Shown in pieces: positions 20,110 to 40,849 of a stretch of 64,000 bases of DNA. The stretch lies in assembly GCA_030147845.1 (NCBI GenBank), contig JASBUN010000051.1, forward strand, positions 33,146-97,145, in the 5' to 3' direction. Numbering within the stretch: position 1 is the first letter of the stretch; each line of letters starts with the position of its first letter. The DNA is from Gammaproteobacteria bacterium. Lineage in GTDB: Bacteria; Pseudomonadota; Gammaproteobacteria; JASBUN01. The translations under genes were made by a program, and so were the position numbers. Under the pieces are notes generated by a model. That model worked only from the letters and a program-made list of their open reading frames with translations. It searched no databases and had not been told where the DNA came from.

Positions 20110-20261
20110 GATTAACAGGTTGTTGAAAAACCCTCGGGCGGCGCCATGCGGCGTTGGAAAACGGCTCAAAATGCTCATTTACTGATGTGTAAACTGCGCT
20201 TTCTCGCCGTGTTCCGCCTTGTCCGGCATCCACCGGAGACTTTTTCAACAACCTGTTAATC
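20110..20261. repeat. Perfect 21-bp inverted repeat (GATTAACAGGTTGTTGAAAAA) flanking a 110-bp spacer. It sits inside a ~120-bp imperfect direct repeat (about 20148-20236 and 20268-20360).
   Basis: Left arm 20110-20130 and right arm 20241-20261 are exact reverse complements. The direct-repeat copies share gcggcgttgg...tggaaa...tgtg(t/c)aaactgcgctt(t/c)ct(c/t)gccg...ttccgccttg. Confidence 0.6.
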
Positions 20262-25375: not shown

Positions 25376-25641
25376 GTAAAACAGCACAGTATAGTTATAG
25401 TAAATACATTAGTACCACGTCCAGCATTGCTGGTTGCGAACCCGTTCACAGAATTGCCGGCGCCGATGTCGACGGCGTCACAACCGCATCAAGATCGTGT
25501 TCATCGAACACATTATTTGATCGTCATCATTTATTAAATTTTCTTTACAGTCAGTCGGTCGCACCGCAATCTGCGCGTCGAACGCGATGGTAGCAGCCGT
25601 CGCGACATCTCGTCAGTTATCGCTCAGCTAGGGAGATCCAC

Positions 25642-25869
25642 ATGATTACGCAGTTCAAAAAGGCGGTGTTGACCGCGGTGGTTTTGGGTGCTGCAGTCTC
25701 CATGGCCTCGCCGGCATTTGCGGCCGAAGGCGCCAAGAAGCACGTCAGCTGCACGACGGAAGCCAAGCATGCCGGTATGAAGGGCTCCAAGGAGATTCAC
25801 AAGTACGTCAAGGAATGCAAGCACAAGCGCGCTATGGCCAAAAAGCACGCCAAGGAAATGAAGAAGTAA
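25642..25869 (+). CDS. Small secreted Lys/His-rich protein with a single PsiF-type repeat.
   Basis: ATG at 25642 with GGGAG upstream. Signal peptide ...SPAFAAEG. The segment SCTTEAKHAGMKGSKEIHKYVKECKHK fits the PsiF repeat pattern (SC..A....KG..R/K..M..C). Confidence 0.6.
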   Translation: MITQFKKAVLTAVVLGAAVSMASPAFAAEGAKKHVSCTTEAKHAGMKGSKEIHKYVKECKHKRAMAKKHAKEMKK

Positions 25870-25984
25870 GCCCGGAAAGCGCGGTCGTGCGCTCCGCCAC
25901 GCGGACCGCCGACTGAAAAGTCCGCAATGGGGTCGCCGTTACCGGCGGCCCCATTTGCGTATATCGCGAGTGATTGCACGACGT

Positions 25985-26821
25985 ATGCCTATTCGCTCGA
26001 TGACTTGCTACACTCGTATGCGGTTACTCTCGTTCGATATTTTGCGCACGTTGCACCTCCCCGGAGTTCATTCGCTGAAGCCGGACGACTGGTTGCGTCG
26101 CAAGGAAGATATCCGCGCCGCCGACTGGTTGTTGTTTCCCCCTGCGTGGCAGGTCAACATATTCGCCTACGGTTGGCGCAAGCGCTTGTTTCCGAGTTTG
26201 TCGACCTATCATCTGGGCTACGATAAGGTGCAGATGACCCGCGCCTTCATGGCGGTTTGTCCCGACCATGTCCCGCAGACGCTTATTCTTTCCTCGACCC
26301 CGGCTGGCATTGATCAAGTGCTGGAGGAAATGACCTTTCCATTCGTGGTCAAGGCTCCGCGCAGCTCCATGGGCCGCGGTGTGCAGTTACTGGAGCAGCG
26401 TAGCGAATTTCTACGTTACGCGGCGGCCACAGATATCCTTTATGTACAGGAGTATCTACCAATCAAGCGGGACTTGCGCGTGGTCTACGTTGGCGACTCG
26501 GTGAGCACGGCGTATTGGCGTACCGCGCCACCCGGCCAGTTCCATAACAACGTTGCACGTGGTGCGACGATTTCGTTTGAAGATATTCCGTCGGCGGCGC
26601 TCGAGTTGGTCTCGACTGTCGCGGCTGCGCTTGGGATCGACCACGCAGGCTTTGACGTTGCCGAGGTAGACGGTCGTTTTTACTTGCTCGAATTCAATTT
26701 ATTGTTCGGCACCGAGGCGCTCAGCATGCAATCGATCCGAATCGAAGCGATGATTCATGAATACCTGCACCGCCTATGGTCGCGGGATCCGGGCAACACG
26801 TTCGCGTGCCCGTCCGCCTGA
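25985..26821 (+). CDS. RimK-like ATP-grasp ligase.
   Basis: ATP-grasp core aligns with RimK: FPFVVKAPRSSMGRGV, LYVQEYLPIKRDLRVVYVGD, HNNVARGATIS, AGFDVAEVDGRFYLLEFNLLFG. Start is uncertain (ATG at 25985, 26000 or 26018; the track ORF begins at TTG 25955). Confidence 0.7.
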   Translation: MPIRSMTCYTRMRLLSFDILRTLHLPGVHSLKPDDWLRRKEDIRAADWLLFPPAWQVNIFAYGWRKRLFPSLSTYHLGYDKVQMTRAFMAVCPDHVPQTLILSSTPAGIDQVLEEMTFPFVVKAPRSSMGRGVQLLEQRSEFLRYAAATDILYVQEYLPIKRDLRVVYVGDSVSTAYWRTAPPGQFHNNVARGATISFEDIPSAALELVSTVAAALGIDHAGFDVAEVDGRFYLLEFNLLFGTEALSMQSIRIEAMIHEYLHRLWSRDPGNTFACPSA

Positions 26822-26836
26822 GCGGCCGGGGCCGGA

Positions 26837-27316
26837 TCAATACGGTCGCTTACGCAAATGAAGCCTGAATAGCAAACGCGAAAGCGATAGCTCGAGGAGG
26901 ATAAATACGACGACCAGGAGGCCGACATCGAACCAAGTCAAAGCCAATGGGCCGCGCAGAACCAGCAGTGGCAGCAGCGCTTCGGGAATTTGATCCAGCC
27001 CTGCCGCCATGCCGCTGGTATCGACGCCGGCACGGCGTTTGATGAAGCTCGACAGCAGATCGCCGGCCATGGCGCTCGCCGCGACGAGTGCACCAAGTAC
27101 GATATCGAGTCCGACCAGCGGCGCCACCAGCGTGCAGGCAACCGCCGACGCCAGCAGTCCGCGAAACGTTTTACCCGCGCCTAGCAGCGGACGGCCGTCG
27201 CCCAGGCGCAGTCCGCCATCGACGGGCCATTGGCAGCAGGTCCCGAACAGCTTCCATGCCAACACCGGCGCGCCATTGGCGACGAGTAGAAGCAGCAAGC
27301 TTTGGAGCAGATTCAC
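26837..27316 (-). CDS. CarS-like (CDP-archaeol-synthase-like, PF01864/DUF46) small membrane protein.
   Basis: About 159 aa with 4-5 transmembrane segments. Conserved FGTCC.PVDGG...DGRPLLG..KT.RG block typical of bacterial CarS-like proteins. GTG start at 27316. Convergent with the ATP-grasp gene, with a 15-bp gap. Confidence 0.55.
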   Translation of the reverse strand: MNLLQSLLLLLVANGAPVLAWKLFGTCCQWPVDGGLRLGDGRPLLGAGKTFRGLLASAVACTLVAPLVGLDIVLGALVAASAMAGDLLSSFIKRRAGVDTSGMAAGLDQIPEALLPLLVLRGPLALTWFDVGLLVVVFILLELSLSRLLFRLHLRKRPY

Positions 27317-27319
27317 GTG

Positions 27320-27646
27320 CTAGTCGGCTCGCCGCTGGATTTGCGCAAGGCGGTTTCGACCGATGCGGTGTTGATCAGACTTTGGCCGATGACGCGTGGC
27401 TACCGGCGGTATAGCGTATCTAAGGTCATCGGTTGTCGGCTGGCGGCTTTTTCCCAACCGGTGCCCTGGCGGCCCATGGCGGCGCGTACGCAATCGCGCG
27501 CTCCAGTCCGCGGCGAGATCCTCGAATCCCGGACCAACGGCTTCGTACAAGCATTCGAGTTCGTCCATGTTGTAGCCGAGTTCAGCGCTATGATGCAGAT
27601 CGTTGATGCGCGCAGTTACGTGCTCAACATATTGGTATGGTTCCAT
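27320..27646 (-). CDS. Possible small ORF (108 aa) upstream of the CarS-like gene; doubtful.
   Basis: ATG at 27646. The first half (MEPYQYVEHVTARINDLHHSAELGYNMDELECLYEAVGPGFEDL) is protein-like but has lower GC3 than its neighbours. The second half is Arg/Pro-rich, as expected from a noncoding GC-rich frame. Confidence 0.25.
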   Translation of the reverse strand: MEPYQYVEHVTARINDLHHSAELGYNMDELECLYEAVGPGFEDLAADWSARLRTRRHGPPGHRLGKSRQPTTDDLRYAIPPVATRHRPKSDQHRIGRNRLAQIQRRAD

Positions 27647-27828
27647 CAACGAATCCCAGTGTTGCCACGCAACGCTGCTCCATGTGCGAGCGATCAATGT
27701 CTTTAATATCGAACACGCCCCGAGTTCGTCAAGGTGCCGCGATGCTGCTGATATTCGCACTGCAGTGGCTGGCTTTGCGACCGCGCCATGCTATGGTTTC
27801 GCTGGGGAAGACACGAATAGGTGAGCGA

Positions 27829-28389
27829 GTGAGTTTGCGCATCGCATGCATGCTTTTTCTAGGGTTGTCGCTATTCGGCTGTGCTAGCGATCTACCGCGA
27901 GATATTGCTTCTCCGCCACCGCACGGCAATCCGCCGCTGGCTGCGGTGCGTGCCGATCCTGGCCGCTTTTCAGGCACTCCGGTGCGCTGGGGCGGCACGA
28001 TCGCCGCGGTCGAAAATCGTAAAAACGACACCTGGATCGATGTGGTTGGACGCCAGTTGGAGCGGGATGGTCGACCGATCGTGGGCGATCGAAGCGAAGG
28101 TCGTTTCATGGCGAAATTGCATGGTTTCGTCGATCCGGCGGTGTATGCCAAGGGCCGCGAGCTGACCGTTGCCGGAACCATCGCGGGTGAGCTGACGAAG
28201 CGTATTGGGCAGTTTCCGTACCGTTTCGTGGTCGTCGATGTGCACACGCTTCATCTGTGGCAGCCGTTACCCAAATACCCACGTGGACCACCGCCGTTCT
28301 GGTACGATGACCCGTGGTCTCCATTCGGATTTCCCTATGGCTACCCGTACGGTTACCCCTATGGGCCGATGTTCGGGCCGCCGTACTAG
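27829..28389 (+). CDS. Slp-family outer-membrane lipoprotein, paralog 1, with a Pro/Tyr/Gly-rich C-terminal tail.
   Basis: GTG at 27829 with AGGTGAG upstream. Lipobox LFGCAS. Conserved Slp core (VRWGGTIAAVEN...GRF...). Unusual tail PLPKYPRGPPPFWYDDPWSPFGFPYGYPYGYPYGPMFGPPY. Confidence 0.7.
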   Translation: MSLRIACMLFLGLSLFGCASDLPRDIASPPPHGNPPLAAVRADPGRFSGTPVRWGGTIAAVENRKNDTWIDVVGRQLERDGRPIVGDRSEGRFMAKLHGFVDPAVYAKGRELTVAGTIAGELTKRIGQFPYRFVVVDVHTLHLWQPLPKYPRGPPPFWYDDPWSPFGFPYGYPYGYPYGPMFGPPY

Positions 28390-28405
28390 AAAACGGAGAA
28401 CACCG

Positions 28406-28918
28406 ATGAATCGAGGCAGGTTGTTGCGCCGTGCCGCGTGCGGGTTGGTTCTCGCGCTGTTGGTGGGATGCGCGGCCGGTCCGCGTTTCAAGACCGCGCA
28501 GGTCGATACGGCGCTTACCCCGCAGCAGGCCGCGGCTGCCGATAAATCGGTTTGGGGGCGACGCGTTCTTTGGGGTGGCGTCATCGTCAATACCGAGAAT
28601 TTGCCACAGCTAAGCCGCATTGAAGTGCTCGCTTACCCGCTCACGTCGGATCAAGAACCCGATACCAAAGCCACTGCGCTCGGCCGATTTCTCATCAGCC
28701 GGCGCGGATATCTGGAATCCGCCGACTACGCCCCCGGCCGCCTGGTGACAGTGACCGGTGAGATCATCGGCACGCGTTTTGGCAAGGTCGGCGAGGCCGA
28801 TTACACCTACGCGGTGGTACAGCCGTCGGGGCTGTACCTCTGGCCGAAAGAAAGCGAGCGCGGCTATTACGACAATCGACCACAGATTCATTTCGGGATC
28901 GGTGTGATTCTGCATTGA
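28406..28918 (+). CDS. Slp-family outer-membrane lipoprotein, paralog 2.
   Basis: ATG at 28406 with GGAG upstream. Lipobox LVGCAAG. Slp core (VLWGGVIVNTEN...). Lies 17 bp after paralog 1. Confidence 0.75.
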   Translation: MNRGRLLRRAACGLVLALLVGCAAGPRFKTAQVDTALTPQQAAAADKSVWGRRVLWGGVIVNTENLPQLSRIEVLAYPLTSDQEPDTKATALGRFLISRRGYLESADYAPGRLVTVTGEIIGTRFGKVGEADYTYAVVQPSGLYLWPKESERGYYDNRPQIHFGIGVILH

Positions 28919-29057
28919 CCGCGTATGGGCGCGATCGACTCACGAGCGCGAATGATCACCGGCCATCGGCTGCGGATTGCCCGGATTAGTAGTGAAATCC
29001 GAGCCTGGCTGCTCTACTTCGATAGAAGGAGGACAGGTCGCCTCTTGCCGTGACTTC

Positions 29058-29157
29058 CGAGTGATGCACGGATGAATCCGTGCCTACAAAAACATTGCCG
29101 TAATCGCCGCCTACCGCATGCTGTTGTAGCCCCGGCTTTGACCGTGCGCGGACTGCG
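29058..29157. repeat. 100-bp repeat unit, copy 1, containing the hairpin gcacgga-tgaa-tccgtgc.
   Basis: Identical over 100 bp to 29314-29413. Internal 7-bp-stem hairpin at 29066-29083. Contains the ctacaa...ttgtag inverted segment. Confidence 0.7.
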
Positions 29158-29313
29158 CCCAACGGGCACGGGCCCGCTGGAAATACGCAAAGCTTGTTTT
29201 TCTTAGCGTACTTAGCGTCTTTGCGAGAGACTAAGGTTCGGCTAGCTGGAATGAAACTTTCGCGGAGCCACAAAGCATGCCAAGGTGAATTGATCGTCTC
29301 ATGTCGGGACTTG

Positions 29314-29413
29314 CGAGTGATGCACGGATGAATCCGTGCCTACAAAAACATTGCCGTAATCGCCGCCTACCGCATGCTGTTGTAGCCCCGGCTTTGACCG
29401 TGCGCGGACTGCG
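29314..29413. repeat. 100-bp repeat unit, copy 2, followed by an inverted partial copy with the hairpin gcacggc-ttca-gccgtgc at 29455-29480.
   Basis: Perfect 100-bp identity with copy 1. ttttgtaggcac at 29455-29466 is the reverse complement of gtgcctacaaaa from the unit 5' end. Confidence 0.7.
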
Positions 29414-29794
29414 ATATTCCGACGCATCTGCCGTCTTCGAATGTTTCCATCGATTTTGTAGGCACGGCTTCAGCCGTGCACATATCCGCTTCACACCCAT
29501 CGGCACGGATCAATCCCAATAGCCCGCCGCTCACCATCGCCAGAGACAAACTGGCGCAGCCAATCACCGAAACGTGGCTAGCGAAACAAAATTGTAAATC
29601 AGGCGGTTAGCATAGTATCTCGCGTTTCCCTGGCGATCTAGACTGGTTCATGGCGACGATTTGCGGCGAATGCCTAAACCCGTTGGCGTCGCGCGCCGAT
29701 AACCCACTTAGACGTGCAGTGCAGTCGGCCGAGATGAGGTGATTACTCTCATCGCACCTGCGCCGCACCGGTCGCAACGACTAGGAGGTGGCTC

Positions 29795-29977
29795 ATGAAC
29801 CGTGAAATGTATTCCAACACGCTAGCCGCAATTGCCTTACGCGGTCAGCCGCGGCGTGCCGAACGGCGCGAAGATCAGGTACGTCAAGCCGAAGCGCGTC
29901 GCCGCTTGGAAGAATACCGCGAACAGCAGATGCTACGGGTAAACATCAGCGACGTGTTCACCGACGATCAATCCTGA
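29795..29977 (+). CDS. Small hypothetical protein (60 aa) with a strong ribosome-binding site, paralogous to the ORF at 17747.
   Basis: ATG at 29795 with AGGAGG at 29783-29788. Arg/Glu-rich helix followed by a ...LRVNISDVFTDDQS tail that is shared with the 17747 ORF. Confidence 0.5.
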   Translation: MNREMYSNTLAAIALRGQPRRAERREDQVRQAEARRRLEEYREQQMLRVNISDVFTDDQS

Positions 29978-30122
29978 ACGCGGTGGCGCCGCCATCGCCT
30001 CCACTGCGCGCCGGTCGTGTTGCCGGGGTTCGCTGGTTGCGTACGTAGTTTCTGGTTCCCGGCGACGCAACACCCTCCTATAATGCGCGCATCTGTCATC
30101 TTTTCGTGCGGAATTTGAACCA

Positions 30123-30689
30123 ATGCCTAAAGCCAGTGAATTGAAACGTGGCGCCGTGGTTGAACTCAACGGCCAGCCTCACATTGTCCGTAATGTCGAA
30201 TCGCGCAGCCCGTCGTCGCGTGGCGCGTCGACCTTATACAAGGTGCGGTTCAGTAATATGCAAACCGGCCAGAAGCTTGATCAAAGTCTCAAGGGCGATG
30301 ATTTTCTCAAGGAGGCCGACTGCGTCAAACGCTCGGTGCAGTTCCTGTTCCGTGATGGCGATGTTTTCACGTTCATGGATACTGAAGATTACAATCAATA
30401 TACCCTTAGCGCCGATGATCTCGACGATCAGACCGGCTACTTGGCGGATGGCCTGCAGGGCATTGTCGCCCTACTCAACGACGGCCGTATTCTCGCGCTC
30501 GAACTGCCGCAGGCCGTGGAGCTGGAAATCGTTGATACGGCGCCTGCGCTTAAAGGCGCGACCGCCAGTGGCCGTACAAAAACGGCGCGGCTGTCGACCG
30601 GAGTTGAGGTTCAGGTGCCGGAATACCTGGCCACCGGCGAAGTCGTGCGCATCAACACCGCGAACGGGAAATTCATGTCGCGTAGTTGA
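30123..30689 (+). CDS. yeiP: Elongation factor P-like protein YeiP (EfpL).
   Basis: Colinear with E. coli YeiP: MPKASELKRG...TLYKVRFSNMQTG...KGDDF...FMDTEDY...LALELPQAVELEIVDTAP..KGA.ASGR.K.A.LSTG..VQVPEYL. Confidence 0.9.
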   Translation: MPKASELKRGAVVELNGQPHIVRNVESRSPSSRGASTLYKVRFSNMQTGQKLDQSLKGDDFLKEADCVKRSVQFLFRDGDVFTFMDTEDYNQYTLSADDLDDQTGYLADGLQGIVALLNDGRILALELPQAVELEIVDTAPALKGATASGRTKTARLSTGVEVQVPEYLATGEVVRINTANGKFMSRS

Positions 30690-30840
30690 ACCCGCGCGAT
30701 TGGTGGTAACCAATTGATCTCACAGCGATGCCGCGTCGTGACCGCATCCCCTCATACTAAAAAAATGTCTTAAATCAATAAAATATAATTGCTCTTGGCA
30801 GTAACGATATTTATATGTCAATATTTCGTCGCTATTCGGG

Positions 30841-30868
30841 TTGATATATTAGAAAATGCTAATATAAT
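30841..30868 (+). promoter_or_regulatory. Near-consensus sigma-70 promoter (TTGATA-N16-TATAAT) in a locally AT-rich island upstream of the DUF2892 gene.
   Basis: ttgata at 30841-30846, a 16-nt spacer, and tataat at 30863-30868. The surrounding 30.70-30.93 kb is unusually AT-rich for this window. Confidence 0.5.
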
Positions 30869-30930
30869 AGCATAAAGACTTAGGCGAGCTGTGGCTCGTT
30901 ACGTTTCTGTTTTCCGAGGAGGTAATCGAC

Positions 30931-31134
30931 ATGAGCGTTGATCGTATAGTTCTCGCCTTTGCGGGCACGGTTATCCTGTTGAGTTTGATTTTGTCGCAAG
31001 TGCATTCCGTCTATTGGTTGTGGGTGACGGCGTTCGTGGGCGCCAATCTATTGCAGAGCGCCATCACCGGATTTTGTCCGCTGGCCAAAATTCTCAAGGC
31101 GGTCGGCGTCAAGCCGGGCGTCGCATTCAATTAA
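30931..31134 (+). CDS. DUF2892 (YgaP-C-terminal-like) small inner-membrane protein.
   Basis: ATG at 30931 with GAGGAGG upstream. 67 aa with two transmembrane helices and the conserved GFCPL motif. Confidence 0.65.
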
Positions 31135-31299
31135 TTAGACCGGCCTAGCTCGGCCGTAAAGCCGCCCGCCGACGCCGGCGGCGGCGCGCCAAATCACCCT
31201 CGTTGTCGTGCGTAAGCCTCGTGCCGGTATTTCTCGGCACGATAGTTGCTCCGTGCATGGGTGACGCAAAATAATTGACGCCGCGTGGCGGGGAAAAGC

Positions 31300-31767
31300 A
31301 TGACTGAGACGGTAAAAATTCCGGTGTATAGCCTGCAAGGCGGCGTGCATCGTATCGAAATCTACCAGGAGTTGTCCGACGGCACGTTCCGGCGTACCGG
31401 TGAAGAGCCGCTGCGGGCGGTACGCGATATGATTTCCGGTTTGAGCGCGAGCATCGGCGAGTTGGTTTCCATCCAGTTTGATCGCAGTGCGCGCGTCTGG
31501 CGCGCGCCGACCATATTAGCTCGTGGTGAGCGGCCGCAGAGTGTGTATGAATTTCTACGCGGGCGGCTGCGGCGCCGGCGCCTGTTTGTGTTTAGCAAAC
31601 CATCTTTATCCGGGCGGCTGGTGCGCTTCGATGTTCAGGAGCTACAGTTGAAGTCAACCATCGCCACACAGATACTGACCACTATATCGCGGCGTTATTG
31701 TGAGGCCATCGATCTGTGGTTGGAGCATGGCGCCGACAGCGTGCCGGCGAAACGCGCGGCCGGCTGA
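31300..31767 (+). CDS. Hypothetical protein (155 aa).
   Basis: ATG at 31300 with GGGGAAAAG upstream. Coding-like codon usage. No recognisable domain. Confidence 0.45.
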   Translation: MTETVKIPVYSLQGGVHRIEIYQELSDGTFRRTGEEPLRAVRDMISGLSASIGELVSIQFDRSARVWRAPTILARGERPQSVYEFLRGRLRRRRLFVFSKPSLSGRLVRFDVQELQLKSTIATQILTTISRRYCEAIDLWLEHGADSVPAKRAAG

Positions 31768-32182
31768 GCATCGCCGCGATTCGGCTCGCCGAGCCGCTGG
31801 CTGCCGAGGCGGGCGCCCGAACCTATGTGGCGTAGCACGATGACGGTTATTTCGGTCCTAATACCAGACGGTGCCGGCTATCTGTGACGATACGCAGTGG
31901 CGTGATACTGTGCGCAAAGCGGTGCAGTATGCGCTGCGCTTCGTCATGTATAGCCTCGGCGTCGCCGGTCAATACAACGCCGTCTTGCGTGTATTCGATA
32001 CTGCATTCGGGGCTTGGGTTGTTTGCCATGGTGATGGACCTCGTGCGTCCGCGACGGATGCCTCAAAGAGATCGTGACGCATCATCGCTAATGCCGGGAA
32101 GATTGTGCCGTTACCATAAAGTGTATGGCCGGTGAGACCTATTTCGACCTCCCAACTGGGATAGTTGCTCGTAGTTACCCTT

Positions 32183-34354
32183 CTACTTCGGGGTATCGGC
32201 CCCCGCCGCGGCGGGCGGCGCCAGCGGCGCACGGGGCGTGAGATGTAGCGGCGCCAGCGGCGCGTTGCCGTGCGCCAACCGTACTATCAGTGGCGAGTTG
32301 ACCACCGTCCACTGGCCTTTGAGGAAATTGGTTGGCGCATCATCACTAAAGGCCAGATAGCTATATTTTCCGTAGTGCGGCAATTTGCGCGCCAGTCCCG
32401 GTAGCGCGGCCGGATTATCGCATCCGAGCCAAGCCAGTCCGGCCTCGGGGTTGCGCGGCTGTCGGCCGACTAGCACTACGCTGGTGGTCTCGCGCGGCAA
32501 GGTTTGACCGACCGCATGTACCTGCTGATCATCCAGACTGACGCCTCGCGCGGCCAGCACGGCCGCAACGTCGGCGCGAAAGCGGTTACGCCAGCCGAGC
32601 ACCCATACGGGGCGATCAGTCGGTAAAACTTTCAAGTCGGTATCCCATACCACCTGGTCGGCGCGATCGGCCCATTGATCGGCCAAACTGCGATAGCCGG
32701 CGCGCAGATCGGGGGATGCCGCTGCCGGTAGTACGTACAGCGCATTGGTGGCGCCGAACAACTGACCAACCGACGGCGGTAGCTCGTCGCGATCGAGGAG
32801 CCGAAACACATCGAACCCTGGGTCGATCGCCAACCGCAACGGGCGGATCGGTACGTGTAGATCCAGTGTAGCGCGTCGGCCGCTCAAATTAACGCTCGTC
32901 ACCACCGCTGACTCGGCGCCTTCGATCTGCACCGCTACCGGCACACGCAGCGTGTAGTTAGGGCCGCTTTGGCTCTGTTCCAATATGCCGCGCACGCGGT
33001 AACCCGCGCCGTCGGATTGCACGCTTATATCGCGCACGCGTAGTTGCGGCGCTCCGGTGCGTTGCACCCATTGCTGGAAAAAACCGCCCAAGTGCTCGCC
33101 GCTGGCGCGCTCGAAGGCCGCTTGCAACTGGCGAAAGCCGGCGCGGCGGAACTTGTTGTCGCGATAAAAAAGGCGCAGGCCGGCGATAAACTTAGCGTCG
33201 CCGAGGCGACGACGCAGCATGTGGAAGAACATCGCGCCTTTGGCGTAGCCCACCGCCTGGCTGGCGTCGCCATGTCGACCGCGAAAACGCGCCAGCGGAA
33301 AGTCGCGGCCGTCGGCGACATAGTCGGCATACTGTTGCAGCGCGCCGCGCCGGTATTCGGCGCCCTGTCCGCGGCGTTCGGCCATGAGGTAGTCGGCTAA
33401 ATAAGTGGTCAGTCCTTCTGACCAGTTGCCATCGGCAAACTCGACGTAGACGCCGTTGCCCCACCAGTTGTGTAGAATTTCGTGCGGATAGGAGGAATCA
33501 ATGATGAAGGGCATCCGTATCACGCGCGAGCCGAGCAGCGTGAACGACGGCAGTCCGCTGCCGCTCTCCCAGAAATTTTCTACCAGCGCGAATTTCGCGT
33601 ACGGATAAGGGCCGATTAGACGACTGTAGAAATCCAGATATTGCGCCGTGGCGTCGAGGTAGCGTTGCGCCAAACCGGAGTCGGGCTTACGTAGTAGCAC
33701 CATGGCCGTACCCCACGGCGTTGATTGTTGGTACGAGTTGAGTACCGCCGCGCTTAGAACGATATCTTCCTGCGGCTGCGATTCGTGCCAGTGCGCGACG
33801 TTGTTGCCCGCTACGGCGTTGCCGGCGTCGCCGCCACCTTGGCTGACGGCACGCCAGGTGTCGGGCATTTGTACTTGCAGACGGAAGGTGCGCAGATCGT
33901 CGCCGAACCATGGATACCAGTAGCTGGCGCCATCCAAATACACGCCTGTCGTACTGATCCGGCCGTTGCCGGCCGCACTACCATCGGCGTTCCCATCGGT
34001 GTTATCGGCCGAACTGGTGATGCGCCCGCTGTACTCCAGGTCGACACTGTCGGCGCCAGCCGGTAGAGCGAGGCGGTATCGGCGTACCGGAACGCCGCCG
34101 TCCTGGTAGCTGTCGAGAGCGGTCAGGTGGACGTCGTTACCGACGACGTTGACGCGCAAGTGGGCGTGCAGCGCAAAGATCCAGCCGCGCGCCGGCGTTG
34201 GTGTCGGTAAGGTGATGTGATCGCGTACACTCAATTCGCCGCGCGCGGGCTGCAACGAAACGTGCAGATCGTGATTGATGACGGACGCTGCGGAGCTGGC
34301 CGTATACCATGACAAAAGCGCTGCAAGGAGCAACGTTCGGACCGGATTACACAC
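32183..34354 (-). CDS. Secreted M1-family zinc metallopeptidase (aminopeptidase-N-like).
   Basis: Signal peptide. HEXXH-E zinc site (HEILHNWWGN ... NWSEGLTTY). GTG start at 34354. 723 aa. Confidence 0.8.
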   Translation of the reverse strand: MCNPVRTLLLAALLSWYTASSAASVINHDLHVSLQPARGELSVRDHITLPTPTPARGWIFALHAHLRVNVVGNDVHLTALDSYQDGGVPVRRYRLALPAGADSVDLEYSGRITSSADNTDGNADGSAAGNGRISTTGVYLDGASYWYPWFGDDLRTFRLQVQMPDTWRAVSQGGGDAGNAVAGNNVAHWHESQPQEDIVLSAAVLNSYQQSTPWGTAMVLLRKPDSGLAQRYLDATAQYLDFYSRLIGPYPYAKFALVENFWESGSGLPSFTLLGSRVIRMPFIIDSSYPHEILHNWWGNGVYVEFADGNWSEGLTTYLADYLMAERRGQGAEYRRGALQQYADYVADGRDFPLARFRGRHGDASQAVGYAKGAMFFHMLRRRLGDAKFIAGLRLFYRDNKFRRAGFRQLQAAFERASGEHLGGFFQQWVQRTGAPQLRVRDISVQSDGAGYRVRGILEQSQSGPNYTLRVPVAVQIEGAESAVVTSVNLSGRRATLDLHVPIRPLRLAIDPGFDVFRLLDRDELPPSVGQLFGATNALYVLPAAASPDLRAGYRSLADQWADRADQVVWDTDLKVLPTDRPVWVLGWRNRFRADVAAVLAARGVSLDDQQVHAVGQTLPRETTSVVLVGRQPRNPEAGLAWLGCDNPAALPGLARKLPHYGKYSYLAFSDDAPTNFLKGQWTVVNSPLIVRLAHGNAPLAPLHLTPRAPLAPPAAAGADTPK

Positions 34355-34437
34355 AGAAGGCAGTTTTCCTGTAGTCGGGTGTTGGACGCATAGGTAAACG
34401 CGCTGGTGACTATGGAGCGGCCGGCATTTCGTCTACC

Positions 34438-35592
34438 ATGGCCGCTATGATACTGCAAATTGCCCGACTACTAGCGCCGTTTCTGCTGTTTTCTTTGGCG
34501 GCATGCCAAGCCATCGTGAAACCTGCGCCGGACTCCTCGCCGGTCGCTGGCGAGGTGCGCGTGGTGAACCTCGCGCAGCTTCAAACGCTGGCGGAAATTA
34601 TGCCGGCGCTGTCGCAGAAGCGCGTGGTATTCGTCGCCGAAGTGCACGTACAACTTGCACACCACCAAAACCAGCTGCGGGTCATTCGGCGGCTATATGC
34701 CCGGCATCCGGATATGGCGATTGGGCTGGAGTGGTTTCAACAGCCATTTCAGCCGGCGCTGGACGATTTTGTCGCCGGCCGCATCGATGAATCCACTATG
34801 TTGAGGCGTACCCAGTATTTCCGGCGCTGGGGCTACGATTACCGCTTATATGCGCCGATACTCCGTTTCGCGCGCCGACACCGTATCCCCTTGGTCGCGT
34901 TGAACCTGCCCAGCGAAATTACCCGCCAAGTCGGAGCCGCCGGCTTGGGTAGTTTGAGTGCGCAGCAGCGTGCGCAAATTCCGACGCATATCGACCGCTC
35001 CGACGTGGCTTATCGGCAGCGCCTGCGCGACGTGTTCGCGCATCACCCACATGCCGGGAAGGCCGATTTCGAACGTTTTTACGAGGTGCAGCTGCTGTGG
35101 GATGAGGGTATGGCGGCACGCGCCGCGCACTATCTAAAACAACATCCGGCGCGCCGTATGGTGATTCTTGCCGGTGACGGCCATGTGCGCTGTGGCTCGG
35201 GTATTCCCGCGCGCTTGGCGCGCCGCCTGCCGCTGACGCAGGCCATCGTGCTCAATGGCGCGGGCGGTGGGATCGCGCCCGCGGCCGGCGATTATCTGCT
35301 GTTGTCGTCGCCGCAACAGTTGCCGCCGCCCGGTCGACTCGGTGTGGTGCTCACGCGCGACGCGGGCGGCGTGCGTTTGACCCAGATCGAACCCGGCGGT
35401 GCGGCACAGGCCTCCGGACTGCGTGTCGGCGATGACCTGATTCGGCTCAATGGGCGCGCCGTGCGCACACCATCGGACGTGCGCATTGTCCTATGGAACA
35501 AGCGCCCCGGTGACGCGATGGAGGTCGTTGTGCGGCGTGGCGATAGCATCCACGCGAGCGCAACCGTGACCGCGCAGATACGTTTGCGCTGA
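34438..35592 (+). CDS. ChaN-family (haem/iron-binding, PF04187) lipoprotein with a C-terminal PDZ domain.
   Basis: Lipobox SLAAC. ChaN-like core. C-terminal PDZ (GLRVGDDLIRLNGRAVRTPSDV). Confidence 0.7.
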   Translation: MAAMILQIARLLAPFLLFSLAACQAIVKPAPDSSPVAGEVRVVNLAQLQTLAEIMPALSQKRVVFVAEVHVQLAHHQNQLRVIRRLYARHPDMAIGLEWFQQPFQPALDDFVAGRIDESTMLRRTQYFRRWGYDYRLYAPILRFARRHRIPLVALNLPSEITRQVGAAGLGSLSAQQRAQIPTHIDRSDVAYRQRLRDVFAHHPHAGKADFERFYEVQLLWDEGMAARAAHYLKQHPARRMVILAGDGHVRCGSGIPARLARRLPLTQAIVLNGAGGGIAPAAGDYLLLSSPQQLPPPGRLGVVLTRDAGGVRLTQIEPGGAAQASGLRVGDDLIRLNGRAVRTPSDVRIVLWNKRPGDAMEVVVRRGDSIHASATVTAQIRLR

Positions 35593-35728
35593 GCCGCACG
35601 CCACCGCTAAAGACCTGTGAGATATAGGGATAATAGCCGGCGGCATTGGTCGACGGTGGGGCTTCCATGCTAAGCTTGCGCTCCCCCGAAGACGGCATCG
35701 CATGCCCGTGGCGCGGTAGAGGAAACCA

Positions 35729-36043
35729 ATGGCAGACCAGTTCGTAAAGGTGGCGGAGATTGACGCTATTCCGCCCGGCAAAATGTTATGTGTGGCGCTG
35801 CCGACCGGCCGGATGCTGTTGGCCAACGTCGATGGCCGGATTGTCGCCGCCGACGACATGTGCACCCACGAAGACGCGTCGCTGACGACCGGCTCGCTGA
35901 AGAGTCACTATGTCAAATGCCCGCTGCACGGCAGCCGCTTCGATTTATTCACCGGTGAGGCCATGGATGAACCGGCCGAACAGGCGCTGCGTATCTATGA
36001 CGTCAAGATCGACGGCGTAGATATTCTGGTGAAAATCGACTAA
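35729..36043 (+). CDS. Small Rieske [2Fe-2S] ferredoxin-like protein.
   Basis: Both Rieske boxes are present: CTHEDAS (Cys-x-His) and CPLHGS (Cys-x-x-His). 104 aa. Confidence 0.8.
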   Translation: MADQFVKVAEIDAIPPGKMLCVALPTGRMLLANVDGRIVAADDMCTHEDASLTTGSLKSHYVKCPLHGSRFDLFTGEAMDEPAEQALRIYDVKIDGVDILVKID

Positions 36044-36066
36044 CGCACATCGATACAGGAGTTAAC

Positions 36067-37194
36067 ATGAGCACCTCAGCAGAGAACATATCAGCCGATC
36101 CGCGTGCGTTGATGCGTTCGATTATTCAACGCATCGCCACTGGACCGGAGCTGAGTAAGGACATCTCGCGTGAAGAGGCGTACGCCGGCATGCGGCTGAT
36201 CCTCGATGGTGAGGCCGATCCGGTACAGGCCGCGATCTTCCTGATTGCCTTGCGTATGAAACGTGAAACCGATGACGAGAATCTCGGCGTACTGGAGGCG
36301 ATCCGCGACGCGACCGAAACCGTAACCGCGGCGGTCGACGAGGTGGTGATCATTTCCGATCCGTACGACGGTTACAATCGTACTTTGCCGGCATCACCCT
36401 TTTTGCCTTTGGTGCTCGCCGAACTGGGTGTGCCGACGCTGAGCGAGGGCGTCGAGACGGTGGGTCCCAAATACGGTCTGACGCATCGGCAGGTATTGCG
36501 CGCAGCCGGTGTGGCGGTCGACCTGACGCCGACCGAGGCGGCCGCGCGTCTCGCTGACGAGCGCATCGGTTGGGCCTATGTCGATCAGAGTCGATTCTGC
36601 CCGAAGCTGCACGCGTTACTGGATTTGCGCAGCAAAATCGTCAAACGCCCGGCTATTACCACCGTGGAAGTGCTTACCGGTCCCGTGCGGGGCCGCCAGA
36701 AGACTCATCTGATTAGTGGCTACGTGCACAAGCCCTACCCGCGCCTGTACTCCCTATTGGCCCGTCACATGGACTTCGATTCGCTGCTGCTGGTGCGCGG
36801 GGTGGAGGGCGGTGTTATCCCGTCTTTGCGCCAAGCAGGCCGCTGCGTCTATTACCACGATAAAGGTGAAGAGCAGGGTTTGGATATGAACCCGGTAGAT
36901 TTGGGCATCGTGCAAAACGTACGCGCCGCGCCGCTACCGGAAGACTTGCCGAAGGCGGAGCAGAAGGGTGATGAAATCGCCATCGGCGTCGATATGCGCG
37001 CGTTGGCGACCGTCGCCGCTGATGCCGGCCGCGATGCGCTCCAGGGCAAAGCCGGGCCTATATATGATGGTTTGGTCTATAGCGGGGCGCTGATTTTGCA
37101 ACATCTGCATCGCTACGATTCGCTACCGAGCGCCGCTGCTGCGGTACGTCGAGTGCTCGATTCGGGCACCGCGCTGTCGCGCTTGCGCAACTGA
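36067..37194 (+). CDS. TrpD-like (glycosyltransferase family 3 fold) protein with a degenerate PRPP/Gly-rich loop.
   Basis: ATG at 36067 with AGGAG upstream. N-terminal Glycos_trans_3N-like helix bundle (EEAYAGMRLILDGEADPVQAAIFLIALRMK). Core resembles anthranilate phosphoribosyltransferase, but the GTGGD motif is replaced by DPYDGYNRT. Confidence 0.65.
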   Translation: MSTSAENISADPRALMRSIIQRIATGPELSKDISREEAYAGMRLILDGEADPVQAAIFLIALRMKRETDDENLGVLEAIRDATETVTAAVDEVVIISDPYDGYNRTLPASPFLPLVLAELGVPTLSEGVETVGPKYGLTHRQVLRAAGVAVDLTPTEAAARLADERIGWAYVDQSRFCPKLHALLDLRSKIVKRPAITTVEVLTGPVRGRQKTHLISGYVHKPYPRLYSLLARHMDFDSLLLVRGVEGGVIPSLRQAGRCVYYHDKGEEQGLDMNPVDLGIVQNVRAAPLPEDLPKAEQKGDEIAIGVDMRALATVAADAGRDALQGKAGPIYDGLVYSGALILQHLHRYDSLPSAAAAVRRVLDSGTALSRLRN

Positions 37195-37361
37195 TTGTGC
37201 CGGGCGGATCGCTGCGCGGGTGGTGGTTTAGGAGAGTATGATCCGGGCTGTTCGCGTTACTCGATCCAGGCGATGATGGCGCGGCGAGAAGCGGCGAAAA
37301 AGCGCAGTTTACGCGCGTAAATGGACATTCGGCGCCGCCGTGCGGATTAATCAGTGCTTTC

Positions 37362-38117
37362 CTAGGCTTTGGAGGGTGCCGCCGCCTGTTGCTCGACGGC
37401 ATGCTGCGCCGCGCGCACCTGTTCGTCATCGGCTAAATAATAGTGCGTCATCACCCCCAGGCTGTCGTCGAATTCGTACACCAGCGGGATGCCGGTGGGG
37501 ATGTTCAGTTCCATGATGTCGCTGTCAGATATGTCGTCGAGCTTCTTCACCAACGCCCGTAACGAGTTGCCGTGAGCGACCACCAATAGGCGCTTACCTT
37601 CGCGCAAGCGCGGAAGAATGCACTGATCCCAGCATTCGAGCGCGCGTTTCATGGTGTCCTGTAGCGACTCCGTGTAGGGCAGCCGGGTTGGATCGATATG
37701 GGCGTAGCGCACATCATGATGTGGTATGCGCGCGTCGGTTGCGCTCATGGCTGGCGGTCGAACCGCGAAGCCGCGTCGCCACTGGTGTACTTGTTCCTCG
37801 CCGTAGTGTTCGGCGGTCTCGATTTTGTTCAGTCCTTGCAGCGCGCCGTAGTGGCGTTCGTTCAGACGCCAGTCCTTGTCTATCGGGATCCACATCAAGT
37901 CCATGACATCTTGCACGATCCATGACGTACGGATGGATCGTTTCAGCACGGACGTAACGGCGTGATCAAATTGATAGCCATCGCGTTTCAGCGCAGCCCC
38001 GGCGGCGCGCGCTTCCTTTACGCCGCGTGGCGACAGATCGACATCGGTCCAACCCGTGAATCGCTTCTCGCGGTTCCAGGTACTCTCGCCGTGACGAATA
38101 AAAACAACCTTGATCAT
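37362..38117 (-). CDS. gpmA: 2,3-bisphosphoglycerate-dependent phosphoglycerate mutase GpmA.
   Basis: RHGESxWN catalytic His motif. Colinear with dPGM proteins. ATG at 38117 with GGAG upstream. Confidence 0.9.
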   Translation of the reverse strand: MIKVVFIRHGESTWNREKRFTGWTDVDLSPRGVKEARAAGAALKRDGYQFDHAVTSVLKRSIRTSWIVQDVMDLMWIPIDKDWRLNERHYGALQGLNKIETAEHYGEEQVHQWRRGFAVRPPAMSATDARIPHHDVRYAHIDPTRLPYTESLQDTMKRALECWDQCILPRLREGKRLLVVAHGNSLRALVKKLDDISDSDIMELNIPTGIPLVYEFDDSLGVMTHYYLADDEQVRAAQHAVEQQAAAPSKA

Positions 38118-38458
38118 GGAGTTCTCCAGATTACTTAACGATTGCACATACGGCCGCCCGCCGCGGTCTTGGCGCTACCCATATGGTTAAACCATTAGCA
38201 TTAACTGTGCCATGAGTAAGTGGCGCGGCGGCGGCGCGAAAGCGCGGTAATCAGCGCAAGTCCGGCGCATAATACGCCGAATTGATGCGCCGGGGGAGGG
38301 CGCTTGCGACGTGGGCGCGTCCCATTATGTGCATGTCCGGGCTCGAGCTGGAACGATCGGCTACTAGTATAGTGCTTTTTGAATACACAATGTAGGCGGG
38401 GTTTCGGTGGCTGGGAGCTTACACGGTACTGGCGGCGCGTTAACGGAGTAATGGCGCT

Positions 38459-39028
38459 CTACAATGAATCAATCCATTGTTGTATGCGATCGGCTTCCCG
38501 TTGCAAGAATTGCGCATCTTTGTAGGTGTTGGCGATCAGCGCCGCACCTTGTGTGGCAGCGAGCAAATGCAAGGTCAAATCGGCCGCGTCGTCCCGTGTG
38601 TAGCGAAGTTGCTCGAAGTGGCGTTCCAGCCAGTCGCGGTACAGATCAAACATGCGTGTGGCATGCGCGTGCAACTCCGGTTGGGTTTTGCATAGTTCGA
38701 GATTGAGCGAGCCCATTGGACAGCCGTAGCGCACAATGACCGCGTGTTCACGATGGAGCATATCGACAAAACGCCGCAGGCAGTCACGTGCATCGCTTAG
38801 TTCGTCATCCCAAAGTTGTAACTGTGCCTGAATCGCTTGCAGGCGATGCTCCACGACAGCGGCGAGAATGTCGTTTTTACACTTGAAATAGTAATAGAAA
38901 TTACCCTTCGGCACATTGGCGGCAGCGGCAATATCGCTGAACGAGGTTTGATTGAAGCCCCGGCGATAGAACAGTTGATGCGCGGTGCCGACGATGTGCT
39001 TGCGAACGGTTTCGCCCTTACTTTTCAT
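38459..39028 (-). CDS. TetR/AcrR-family transcriptional regulator.
   Basis: N-terminal TetR HTH (FYRRGFNQTSFSDIAAAANVPKGNFYYYF). ATG at 39028. Divergent from rlmM. Confidence 0.85.
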   Translation of the reverse strand: MKSKGETVRKHIVGTAHQLFYRRGFNQTSFSDIAAAANVPKGNFYYYFKCKNDILAAVVEHRLQAIQAQLQLWDDELSDARDCLRRFVDMLHREHAVIVRYGCPMGSLNLELCKTQPELHAHATRMFDLYRDWLERHFEQLRYTRDDAADLTLHLLAATQGAALIANTYKDAQFLQREADRIQQWIDSL

Positions 39029-39152
39029 TGCATCGCTACAGGTAGTGAGATTCGCTGCATGGCTAGCGTACCAAAATACACGACGGCAATCGCCGCGGCC
39101 AATACGGGTACAGTATACCCCGTGATGATCGCTTCGGAGGGGTTCAATTCAC

Positions 39153-40223
39153 ATGAGCGGCATTTTTATCCACTGTCGCGCCGGATTCGAAAAAGAATGC
39201 GTCGCGGAAATTCAACAACATGCCGCATCGTTGGGTATTGCCGGCTATTGCAAAGCAAAGCCCGACTCTGCCTATGTGTTGTTCGAGAGCTACGAGCCGG
39301 GCGCCGCCGATGAACTGTGTCGGCGGGTGCGTTTCGATCAGTTGATTTTCGTGCGCCAGTGGTTTGTGCTCTTGGGTCTGGTGCGCGATCTGCCGGTGGG
39401 CGATCGAGTCGCGGCGATGATGTCCACGCTTGCCGGTTTGCCGGGGCCGGTTGACGACGTTTATTTGGAGACCCCCGATACCAACGCCGGTAAGCAGTTG
39501 TCAAAGCTATGTCGTAGTCTGAAGACGCCGCTGCTGCGCGCATTGACCGATGTCGCCCGTTACGGCAGTGATGTCAGCGGGCGGCGGCTGCATGTCTGTC
39601 TGTTGAGCGGTAGTGCGGCCTACATTGGCTACGCGCCCACGCATAACAGCGCGGCGCAGCCGATGGGCATCGTCCGGTTACGCTTTCCGGGAGGTGCGCC
39701 AAGCCGATCGACTTTGAAACTGGACGAGGCTTTGCTGATCTTGCTGGATGTCGGTGAACGAGAACGTTATCTGCGACCGGGCATGCAGGCCGTTGATCTG
39801 GGCGCGGCACCGGGCGGTTGGACCTGGCAGTTGGTGCAGCGGCATTTTCACGTCACTGCTGTCGACAACGGCGCCATGGACGATAAACTGCTGGCGTCCG
39901 GACTGGTGCATCATCTGCGCGCGGACGGATTTCGTTTTCAACCGAGTCAGGCGGTTGATTGGATGGTTTGTGATATGGTCGAGCAACCGGCTCGAATTGC
40001 CGATCTTGCCTGCCGGTGGATCGAGCAGGGCTGGTGTCGGCACACCATATTCAATCTGAAATTGCCGATGAATAAGCGCTACGCTGAGGTCCAGCGTTGT
40101 CTACACTTGATCAGCGGGCGTATGCAGCAGCGAGGGTTCGGTTTTCGCTTGGCGTGTAAACAGCTCTATCACGACCGTGAGGAAGTCACGGCGTATCTCG
40201 CGCGCCTCGATGCCGAATATTGA
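39153..40223 (+). CDS. rlmM: 23S rRNA (cytidine2498-2'-O)-methyltransferase RlmM.
   Basis: Colinear with E. coli RlmM/YgdE: PSRSTLKLDEA, AVDLGAAPGGWT, WMVCDMVE.PA, IFNLKLPM.KRY, QLYHDREEVT. Confidence 0.9.
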   Translation: MSGIFIHCRAGFEKECVAEIQQHAASLGIAGYCKAKPDSAYVLFESYEPGAADELCRRVRFDQLIFVRQWFVLLGLVRDLPVGDRVAAMMSTLAGLPGPVDDVYLETPDTNAGKQLSKLCRSLKTPLLRALTDVARYGSDVSGRRLHVCLLSGSAAYIGYAPTHNSAAQPMGIVRLRFPGGAPSRSTLKLDEALLILLDVGERERYLRPGMQAVDLGAAPGGWTWQLVQRHFHVTAVDNGAMDDKLLASGLVHHLRADGFRFQPSQAVDWMVCDMVEQPARIADLACRWIEQGWCRHTIFNLKLPMNKRYAEVQRCLHLISGRMQQRGFGFRLACKQLYHDREEVTAYLARLDAEY

Positions 40224-40288
40224 GTGCGTTGACGTCGCAGCGGTACAATGCCGACACGTTGTGCTCACTACCATTTTTCGGGGGCATC

Positions 40289-40849
40289 ATGACCACTCTA
40301 TCCATTTGCGCCGATGACGGCAGTGGTGGCCGTCGCATGTACACGGATTTCGAGGCCATCGCCGAGCATCTGCGGGAGATCGGCGTTGAGTTTGAACGCT
40401 GGGACACCGACCGTCCATTGGCGGCCGACGCCGGTCAGGATGAAGTTTTGGCGGCCTATCAGGCTTCCATCGATCGGCTCAACAAACGCTACGGCTTCGA
40501 ATCGGTGGATGTGGTGGCGCTGCGCCCGGATCATCCGGGCAAGGCCGATTTCCGACAGAAGTTCTTGGCCGAACACACTCATGCCGATTTCGAGGTACGC
40601 TTCTTTGTCGACGGCAGCGGACTGTTTTATTTGCATGTCGGCGCCAAGGTGTACATGTTGCTATGTGAAAAAGGAGATCTGATCAGCGTGCCTGCAGATA
40701 CCACCCACTGGTTTGATATGGGCGCTGACCCTGATTTCAAATGCATTCGCTTGTTCACTCGTGCGGAAGGGTGGGTTGGTAATTTTACCGGTAGCGACAT
40801 CGCTAACCGCTTCCCCGATTTCGATCAATTCGTCGCATTGAACGTATGA
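40289..40849 (+). CDS. mtnD: Acireductone dioxygenase MtnD (methionine salvage).
   Basis: ARD cupin motifs (HTHADFEVRFFVDGSGLFYLH...IRLF). ATG at 40289. Confidence 0.85.
   Translation: MTTLSICADDGSGGRRMYTDFEAIAEHLREIGVEFERWDTDRPLAADAGQDEVLAAYQASIDRLNKRYGFESVDVVALRPDHPGKADFRQKFLAEHTHADFEVRFFVDGSGLFYLHVGAKVYMLLCEKGDLISVPADTTHWFDMGADPDFKCIRLFTRAEGWVGNFTGSDIANRFPDFDQFVALNV

Follow-up and report, generated by a model that had tools for sequence, protein, structure and literature searches.

A 64,000-nt stretch of contig JASBUN010000051.1 (Gammaproteobacteria bacterium, assembly GCA_030147845.1; referred to below, in its full length, as the window) contains an 876-nt gap between two genes that is occupied by a set of repeated hairpins. 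This gap very probably holds a cluster of GTAG-tagged repetitive extragenic palindromic (REP) sequences resembling a bacterial interspersed mosaic element (BIME), in which the most conspicuous feature, a perfect 100-bp direct repeat, is a tail-to-tail (TT) dimer of REPs that is present twice. A previous reading made from the sequence alone had listed a REP-like element or miniature inverted-repeat transposable element (MITE), a pair of small RNA (sRNA) genes and att-like recombination scars as possible interpretations. The first of these stands and can be narrowed to GTAG REPs in TT and head-to-head (HH) dimers, members of a family that flanks the genes of REP-associated tyrosine transposases (RAYTs); the other two are not supported.

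The gap extends from the stop codon of an slp gene (28918) to an open reading frame (ORF) of 60 aa starting at 29795. A survey of the ORFs found none of coding quality across the 876 nt, and the segment between the repeats is non-coding. The 100-nt unit at 29058-29157 recurs without a mismatch at 29314-29413, giving a period of 256 nt from start to start. Each of these units begins with 8 nt, followed by the hairpin gcacgga-tgaa-tccgtgc and then ctacaaaa. An inverted third element of 27 nt (29454-29480) is 93% complementary and carries a compensatory C..G stem pair. The direct repeat, the hairpin in both copies, the inverted third copy and the lack of genes had all been described by the sequence-only reading, and all were borne out. 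The direct repeat is in fact longer: 29026-29157 and 29282-29413 align over 132 nt at 92%, and the mismatches are confined to the first 32 nt, where identity is about 69%. Tandem Repeats Finder gave no report, since a 256-nt period with 1.5 copies is under its threshold. What had been overlooked is a decayed REP on the opposite strand in each unit, a half-REP at 29502-29516 and the GTAG tag, which lies on the minus strand. The element had also been placed immediately upstream of the 60-aa ORF; this needs correction, as the half-REP ends at 29516, 278 nt before the ORF (29795), and the intervening sequence is for the most part conserved among relatives.

In minus-strand orientation the hairpin has the sequence GTAGGCACGGATTCATCCGTGC, in which a GTAG tag is followed by a G+C-rich 7-bp stem with a 4-nt loop. 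The unpaired GTAG directly adjoins the stem-loop, which is GCACGGA-TTCA-TCCGTGC at 29066-87(-) and 29322-43(-) and GCACGGC-TTCA-GCCGTGC at 29458-79(+). The window hairpins are of the GTAGGCACGG type, and both the A-T and the C-G version of the variable stem pair are present. Folded as RNA the hairpins reach -11.1 and -13.6 kcal/mol. The 22-mer pattern GTAGGCACGGNTTCANCCGTGC has three matches in the 64-kb window, all of them in the gap, where 0.00 are expected from 100 dinucleotide shuffles.

Altogether there are three intact and two decayed REPs as well as one half-REP in the gap, in an arrangement of TT and HH dimers. It starts with an end remnant of a spacer that we call L (29026-29057, minus strand), which is about 69% identical to 29282-29313 and forms the diverged part of the 132-nt repeat. 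The first 100-nt unit (29058-29157) follows; it is a TT dimer of REP1 (29066-29087, minus strand; an exact match to the pattern, with the hairpin of -11.1 kcal/mol), a 38-nt spacer and the decayed REP1' (29126-29147, plus strand; GTAGCCCCGGCTTTGACCGTGC). REP1' was detected by a mismatch scan with 3 mismatches at 19 specified positions and aligns with an intact REP at another locus, REPc of L061 (see below). The spacer L itself (175 nt; 29148-29321, minus strand) leads to the second unit (29314-29413), another TT dimer composed of REP2 (29322-29343, minus strand), a pattern match with the same sequence as REP1, a 38-nt spacer and the decayed REP2' (29382-29403, plus strand), found by the mismatch scan and identical to REP1'. 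REP1', L and REP2 together form a HH module of about 218 nt that is similar to a REPIN (REP doublet forming hairpins). After another 54 nt the pattern matches REP3 (29458-29479, plus strand; GTAGGCACGGCTTCAGCCGTGC), which belongs to a subfamily with the compensatory C-G stem pair and is conserved at the orthologous site of a relative with about 92% identity. Finally, 22 nt further on, a repeat search revealed the half-REP (29502-29516, minus strand; GGCACGGATCAATCC on the plus strand), a hairpin-side half whose GTAG tag would fall on the minus strand.

The REPs belong to a family that is found in many other genomes. The genome scan covered one genome per species. Exact matches to the 22-mer pattern were found at at least 74 loci (L001-L074) in at least about 25 assemblies with 37-67% GC and the labels of about 11 phyla, including Methylomirabilota, Clostridia, Brocadiaceae, Deltaproteobacteria, Elusimicrobiota, Nitrospirota, Acidobacteriota, WOR-3 and Beta- and Gammaproteobacteria; among the matches listed, some metagenome-assembled genomes (MAGs) have up to 12 such loci. 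The variable stem pair had been left free in the search pattern. Nevertheless, it is a Watson-Crick pair in 84 of the 85 listed copies (T-A 68, C-G 12, A-T 4) and a G-T pair in the remaining one. Since unconstrained stem positions are complementary in 84 of 85 cases, their covariation is a direct sign of selection for the hairpin. Neighbouring REPs of the family are, among the matches listed, oriented TT in 33 pairs, HH in 11 and head-to-tail in 5. The closing stem pair follows the GC content of the host, with T-A in AT-rich and C-G in GC-rich hosts, and the partner REPs vary by lineage. One identical 22-mer, GTAGGCACGGTTTCAACCGTGC, occurs in assemblies of many phylum labels with 37-67% GC.

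The second line of evidence connects these REPs to a clade of transposases. Locus L015, from an assembly labelled Methylomirabilota, encodes a Y1_Tnp protein (PF01797, E = 6.8e-13) with REPs on both sides and with others interrupting the gene. A search for homologues of this protein yielded 59 proteins (P0121-P0179), whose labels include Nitrospirota, Thermodesulfobacteriota, WOR-3 and Planctomycetota; the RAYTs of the clade are 50-79% identical across assemblies of many phylum labels. Five further homologue loci were fetched and all five have REPs of the GTAGGCAC type within about 100 bp of the gene, so that REPs stand beside the genes of this clade at six of the six loci examined. The REPs are situated on both sides of the gene at L199, L200, L202 and L205, where at L205 single inverted REPs bracket the RAYT gene, and at L204 they are found upstream of and inside a disrupted gene. 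The REPs of L204 are exactly the two variants of the window. Five homologues were scanned with the NCBIfam model NF047646, 'REP-associated tyrosine transposase', a scan that left out the L015 and L204 genes, and scored 120-145 bits (cutoff 80); with the IS200 model they fall below the cutoff. The HUH motif is invariant and the tyrosine motif YIHxNP is present in seven of the eight aligned sequences of the clade. From its sequence associations, then, the REP family can be said to have a cognate RAYT clade.

A composite like that of the window exists at a locus in another genome. L061, from the MAG BWSM_144, is the sole gammaproteobacterial locus among the matches listed and has the order REPa(-), REPb(+), a 177-nt spacer, REPc(-) and REPd(+). 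L061 350-610 is about 70% identical to the minus strand of the window between 29343 and 29088, in an alignment that runs through REP, L, REP, spacer and REP; L alone is about 70% identical to L061 379-555. An 865-aa protein encoded beside the L061 cluster is without homologue in the window. Because the neighbouring genes differ, the two clusters are at non-orthologous loci. The HH module of L061 folds as one long hairpin closed by its paired REPs (z = -6.3).

The structure of the cluster varies among close relatives of the window strain. The locus of these strains was reached via homologues of the flanking proteins, in short-read contigs (k=31) that end inside the repeats. With the window as allele A, allele B is represented by L210 (SRR33270641), which is 99.7% identical over 25490-28955 and contains a single unit without L. 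From about 28955 it jumps to the second half of the minus-strand REP by way of an imperfect 10-nt direct repeat (GCGCGAATGA / GCACGGATGA), is then without about 50 nt of the TT spacer and continues into REP3. Allele C (L211 and L208/L207; SRR13206476/79) is 95.0% identical upstream (25406-29025) and 99.15% downstream (L207 compared with 29502-40689). It matches the window to 29025; after that position, exactly where the remnant of L lies in the window, an L-like sequence begins, and a half-REP is joined directly to 29517 onwards. Allele C therefore contains L and the half-REP and neither an intact REP nor REP3. L211 and L208 overlap by about 30 nt, with two mismatches, and are presumed to be contiguous on this basis. 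In allele D (L196/L197, about 92%) REP3 and the half-REP are kept and 134 extra nt follow after 29526. In total there are at least four structures among strains whose flanks are 92-99.7% identical. The half-REP junction AATCC/CAATA of the window is also found in strains L207 and L196. The 134-nt insertion of L196 (about 48-181) is without a REP, and the remaining region corresponding to 29527-29794 is about 90% conserved. In SRR13206476/79 the step from 95.0% identity upstream to 99.15% downstream suggests that a recombination boundary lies at or close to the REP cluster or that two strains occur together.

Three facts bear on the age of the perfect repeat: identity steps from 69% to 100% at 29058/29314, the dimers at L061 are diverged although they stand in the same TT-L-TT order, and allele B has a single unit. 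Taken together they indicate that the perfect repeat stems from a recent homogenising event (gene conversion) or from re-duplication, and that it is strain-specific and not an old conserved duplication. A recent duplication or gene conversion had been proposed by the sequence-only reading, which had also asked whether copy number varies between strains; both points are borne out, as strains with 95-99.7% identity carry one unit (L210) or no intact REP at all (L211/L208).

We propose the following mechanism. The single-strand DNA hairpins of the REPs would be recognised by a cognate RAYT, a tyrosine transposase of the HUH/Y1 type, and would be cut next to the GTAG tag. The RAYT would thereby copy REP doublets around the genome and seed REPs of this family. 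Once copies have become neighbours, the cluster could be expanded, contracted and homogenised through homologous recombination, replication slippage or gene conversion among them, and the perfect 100-nt identity would be the product of a recent event of this kind in the window strain. The event would have been either a duplication or a gene conversion. A RAYT presumably exists and acts in the source genome; the mobility of the REPs in this genome is inferred only, since there is no RAYT in the 64-kb window.

Several observations weigh against a REP cluster of this origin. A search with a profile hidden Markov model specific for the clade (E<=1) detected no RAYT in the window or on the contigs of the relatives; a motif regular expression and phmmer with two Y1 queries found none in the window either. 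REPs of this type are confined to one gap within the 64 kb. Classic REP-rich genomes have about one REP per 8 kb and are thus more densely populated than the window. In the HH module of the window one arm is decayed (16 of 19 specified positions), and the module folds only marginally better than shuffled sequences (z = -1.9). The perfect repeat is centred on the TT junction and not on the boundaries of the REPIN-like HH module. Finally, independent contigs confirm the outer junctions of the repeat, and its interior (29079-29451) is without such confirmation.

The possibility that the 100-nt unit is a freshly transposed REPIN was rejected because the perfect tract straddles the TT junction and its ends do not coincide with the HH module. 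A survey of the window for other hairpins headed by GTAG gave two weak 6-bp candidates, at 37848(+) and 33981(-), and no enrichment in comparison with other tetranucleotide heads. A match at 59943-59963(-) from a looser scan was discarded as a chance match within a 358-aa ORF.

The spacer L deserves separate consideration. It holds two inverted arms with three CGCNAAG units each: one at 29202-29227 (minus strand; CTCGCAAAGACGCTAAGTACGCTAAG) and an imperfect inverted partner at 29257-29285, which reads CCTTGGCATGCTTTGTGGCTCCGCGAAAG on the minus strand and is conserved in L061. The arm pattern CTCGCAAAGNCGCNAAGNACGCNAAG was found in at least 120 metagenome stretches (loci L076-L195) on contigs with 28-70% GC. 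Among the matches listed, none of 132 has the GTAGGCACG REP beside the arm pattern, which argues that the family of L is separate from the REPs. L thus appears to carry a member of a second, very widespread repeat family. It has no match in Rfam (E<=1) and none in the literature for the strings searched; the searches with GTAGGCACG, CGTGCCTAC and six strings of the CGCAAAG/CACAGAG type returned unrelated primers or nothing. Arrangements of the pattern include arm-loop-arm palindromes, inside-out pairs and tandem arrays (for example L177), and the unit variants CGCAGAG and CACAGAG were seen in the flanks of such stretches. A conserved ORF in L was considered and rejected, as the 45-aa frame of the window runs into a stop in L061.

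The wide distribution of the arm pattern raises the question whether the palindrome in L is the primary element, beside which REPs have accumulated, so that the cluster would not be a REPIN-like unit. The lack of a neighbouring GTAGGCACG REP in the matches listed from those metagenome stretches is in line with this idea, and so is the allele of L211/L208, which has L with the half-REP only. However, REPs and L are kept together in the same order and orientation in L061 and in the window, the bounding REPs of L061 pair and close one long hairpin, and the perfect 100-nt repeat spans the REP dimer and not the palindrome. We therefore regard a cluster centred on L as improbable, though it is the best of the alternatives to a BIME-like REP cluster.

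It was also considered that the order unit-L-unit is an assembly artefact, that is, a repeat that has been mis-resolved, with one unit or some other number at the true locus. The outer junctions are matched at 100% by short-read contigs from the same sample, L209 (window 25406-29078) and L075 (29452-36615). As these contigs stop in REP1 and restart at 29452, the interior is a tangle in the assembly graph, and the copy number of a structure of the form (A-B)n-A cannot be fixed from k-mer graphs. Against this, the 32-nt left flanks of the two copies have diverged (69% identity) and their right flanks are not the same, which requires at least two real copies plus the segment between them, joined to a unit at both ends; moreover, the order REP-L-REP-spacer-REP is also found in an independent MAG (L061). 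Because of the distinct flanks and the order in L061 at least two copies should be real, and an artefact is very unlikely. The contig breaks are telling in another respect. The starting points of three independent contigs lie in the cluster or just ahead of it, as a multi-copy sequence would be expected to cause, and the breaks just before REP3 in two samples (L075 and L196) suggest further REP copies in the genome.

Even less probable are two tandem sRNA genes in the manner of PrrF1/PrrF2, with one transcript for each 100-nt unit. The likeness to PrrF1/PrrF2 is that of two near-identical intergenic units of about 100 nt in tandem. Each of the two identical units of the window has a stable hairpin of -11 kcal/mol, and the whole unit folds at -29.5 kcal/mol (plus strand) or -37.0 kcal/mol (minus strand). 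However, Rfam gave no match at E<=1 in 28000-31000, a scan of both strands for promoters and terminators detected neither a sigma-70-like promoter nor a terminator-like site in or close to the units, and no U-runs follow the hairpins. Strains whose flanks are 95-99.7% identical have a single unit or none, and the core hairpin of the units is a dispersed multi-copy motif that is found beside transposase genes in other phyla. The missing promoter, terminator and Rfam family, the lack of conservation across near-identical strains and the dispersed hairpin, a mobile-element motif, set the units apart from PrrF1/PrrF2, and the suggestion of tandem sRNA genes is not supported.

Least probable of all are recombination scars, either att-like or integron attC sites left by an integrase-driven element, as the sequence-only reading had in part suggested: direct repeats do enclose a 156-nt segment with an inverted partial copy nearby, but Pfam shows no integrase, recombinase or phage gene among the genes called in the stretch that begins about 3.5 kb upstream and ends 11 kb downstream (L209, L075, L207; the families are RimK, CarS-like, Slp, EF-P-like, YgaP-like, peptidase M1, Rieske and others, with several small ORFs without Pfam family), and elsewhere the motif of GTAG plus hairpin accompanies HUH/Y1 transposases and not tyrosine or serine recombinases.

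Beyond the REP cluster itself the comparison across genomes yielded some leads. In three RAYT genes a dimer of the gene's own REPs lies inside the ORF at the same position of the alignment (L015 689-757, L199 3314-3380 and L204 537-590). It follows an ...EINR motif and is situated between the HUH and the tyrosine motifs. In L015 and in L199/P0123 the dimer is in frame; in L204/P0150 the gene continues in another frame. These dimers could reflect self-targeting, autoregulation or a tolerated loop, and the in-frame ones hint at self-targeting or autoregulation by the RAYT. The sharing of REPs and RAYTs among distant labels suggests, from sequence comparison, either horizontal spread of the pair or deep conservation. 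A horizontally spreading lineage of 'REPtrons' (RAYT genes with their own REPs alongside), made up of the 22-mer GTAGGCACGGTTTCAACCGTGC and RAYTs in assemblies labelled Methylomirabilota, Nitrospirota, Planctomycetota, Thermodesulfobacteriota, WOR-3, Elusimicrobiota, Clostridia, Acidobacteriota and Beta- and Gammaproteobacteria, is one such lead. The combined proposal, namely such a horizontal lineage together with self-targeting or autoregulation of the RAYTs and with an L spacer that belongs to a second, apparently undescribed family of CGCNAAG palindromes, is tentative and as a whole rather doubtful. The cross-phylum sharing, the dimers inside ORFs and the CGCNAAG family rest on MAG taxonomy labels and on small samples and are to be read as leads only.

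Directly upstream of the gap there are two tandem paralogues of Slp-family outer-membrane lipoproteins (27637-28389 and 28406-28918; PF03843, E = 7e-46 and 5e-38), the first of which ends in a C-terminal tail GYPYGYPYGYPYGP. By analogy with other REPs, a role in the stability of the slp mRNA 3' end is possible; the cluster may also affect downstream expression. On the other side of the gap the 60-aa ORF (29795-29977) has a strong AGGAGG ribosome-binding site and no Pfam family. It is present in all relatives (60-61 aa) and always precedes a gene of the EF-P-like type (EfpL/YeiP). The EfpL of the window is 65-72% identical to its best other matches, which include sequences from Methylococcales, Methylobacter and Sedimenticola.

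Other repeats are found elsewhere in the window. A 152-bp element at 20110-20261 is bounded by 32-nt inverted repeats (GATTAACAGGTTGTTGAAAAACCC...) that are 88% complementary and 88 nt apart. Inside it, a 30-nt segment (20189-20218) recurs in inverted orientation 17 kb away, at 37283-37312 and next to a 29-nt palindrome; the element may be another small dispersed repeat or a MITE. Three families of direct repeats, D1, D3 and D4, extend over about 12060-17465 with a spacing of about 1-1.9 kb. They resemble the internal repeats that double ABC ATPases have, and two adjacent paralogues may be involved; TTACCGGTGTCAGCGGCAGCGGCAAGAGTACGCTGG within these families encodes a putative Walker-A motif.

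For annotation the gap should be treated as a REP cluster and not as a pair of sRNAs, an att site or a hidden gene, and its perfect repeat should be taken as a recent rearrangement and not as a conserved functional duplication. With at least four structural alleles at 92-99.7% flank identity the locus is an example of how fast a REP cluster can change. It might be used as a strain marker, and short-read assemblies can be expected to break there. The REPs and RAYT clade shared across phyla, the REP insertions in RAYT genes and the CGCNAAG palindromes go beyond this main finding and are leads on the spread of such elements.

Among known systems the BIMEs of E. coli share with the window the clusters of REPs in alternating orientation, the conserved linker motifs between them and the tandem expansion. 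They differ in sequence, as the REPs of the window have no similarity to the REPs or linkers of E. coli. For BIMEs the binding of IHF, gyrase and Pol I has been described.

The REPIN-RAYT systems (Bertels & Rainey 2011, PMC3116915; Bertels et al. 2017, PMC5581495) are similar to L061 in that inverted REPs bound a unit folding as one long hairpin, and similar to the present clade in that the transposase passes the RAYT equivalog model and is placed between inverted REPs. The window itself departs from them with the decayed arm of its module and with no RAYT found within its 64 kb. The published systems (Groups 2 and 3) are described as inherited mainly vertically within enterobacteria and pseudomonads (PMC5581495), whereas here the identical 22-mer and the 50-79% identical RAYTs span many phylum labels. 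If true, a horizontal spread of REPtrons would conflict with the view of REPIN-RAYT systems as vertical and lineage-specific.

The architecture of the cluster is that of the super-family of GTAG REPs (Di Nocera, De Gregorio & Rocco 2013, BMC Genomics 14:522; PMC3733652). The stem GCACGG/CCGTGC could not be matched to the 24 published families, and the strings 'GCACG' and 'CGTGC' are absent from the text of that paper, figure 1 excluded. Set against the text of the same paper, the cluster of the window differs by its HH spacer of 175 nt, which bears the arms of the second repeat family, where the dimers described are usually 20-100 bp apart; the density is also low here, with one cluster in 64 kb. 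The GTAG REPs of that paper have stems of 6-13 bp, a range that includes the 7-bp stem of the window, short loops and an unpaired terminal GTAG; their subfamilies are set by complementary changes in the stem; and they form both TT and HH dimers, with a conserved spacer in the latter. As in the window, they are extragenic, lie between unidirectional ORFs and are closer to the 3' end of the upstream gene. According to the same text, clusters consist of tandemly reiterated dimers with adjoining DNA, and REPs stand on either side of RAYT genes; the present family shares both features, the tandem dimer clusters with their flanking DNA and the RAYT genes with their own REPs alongside.

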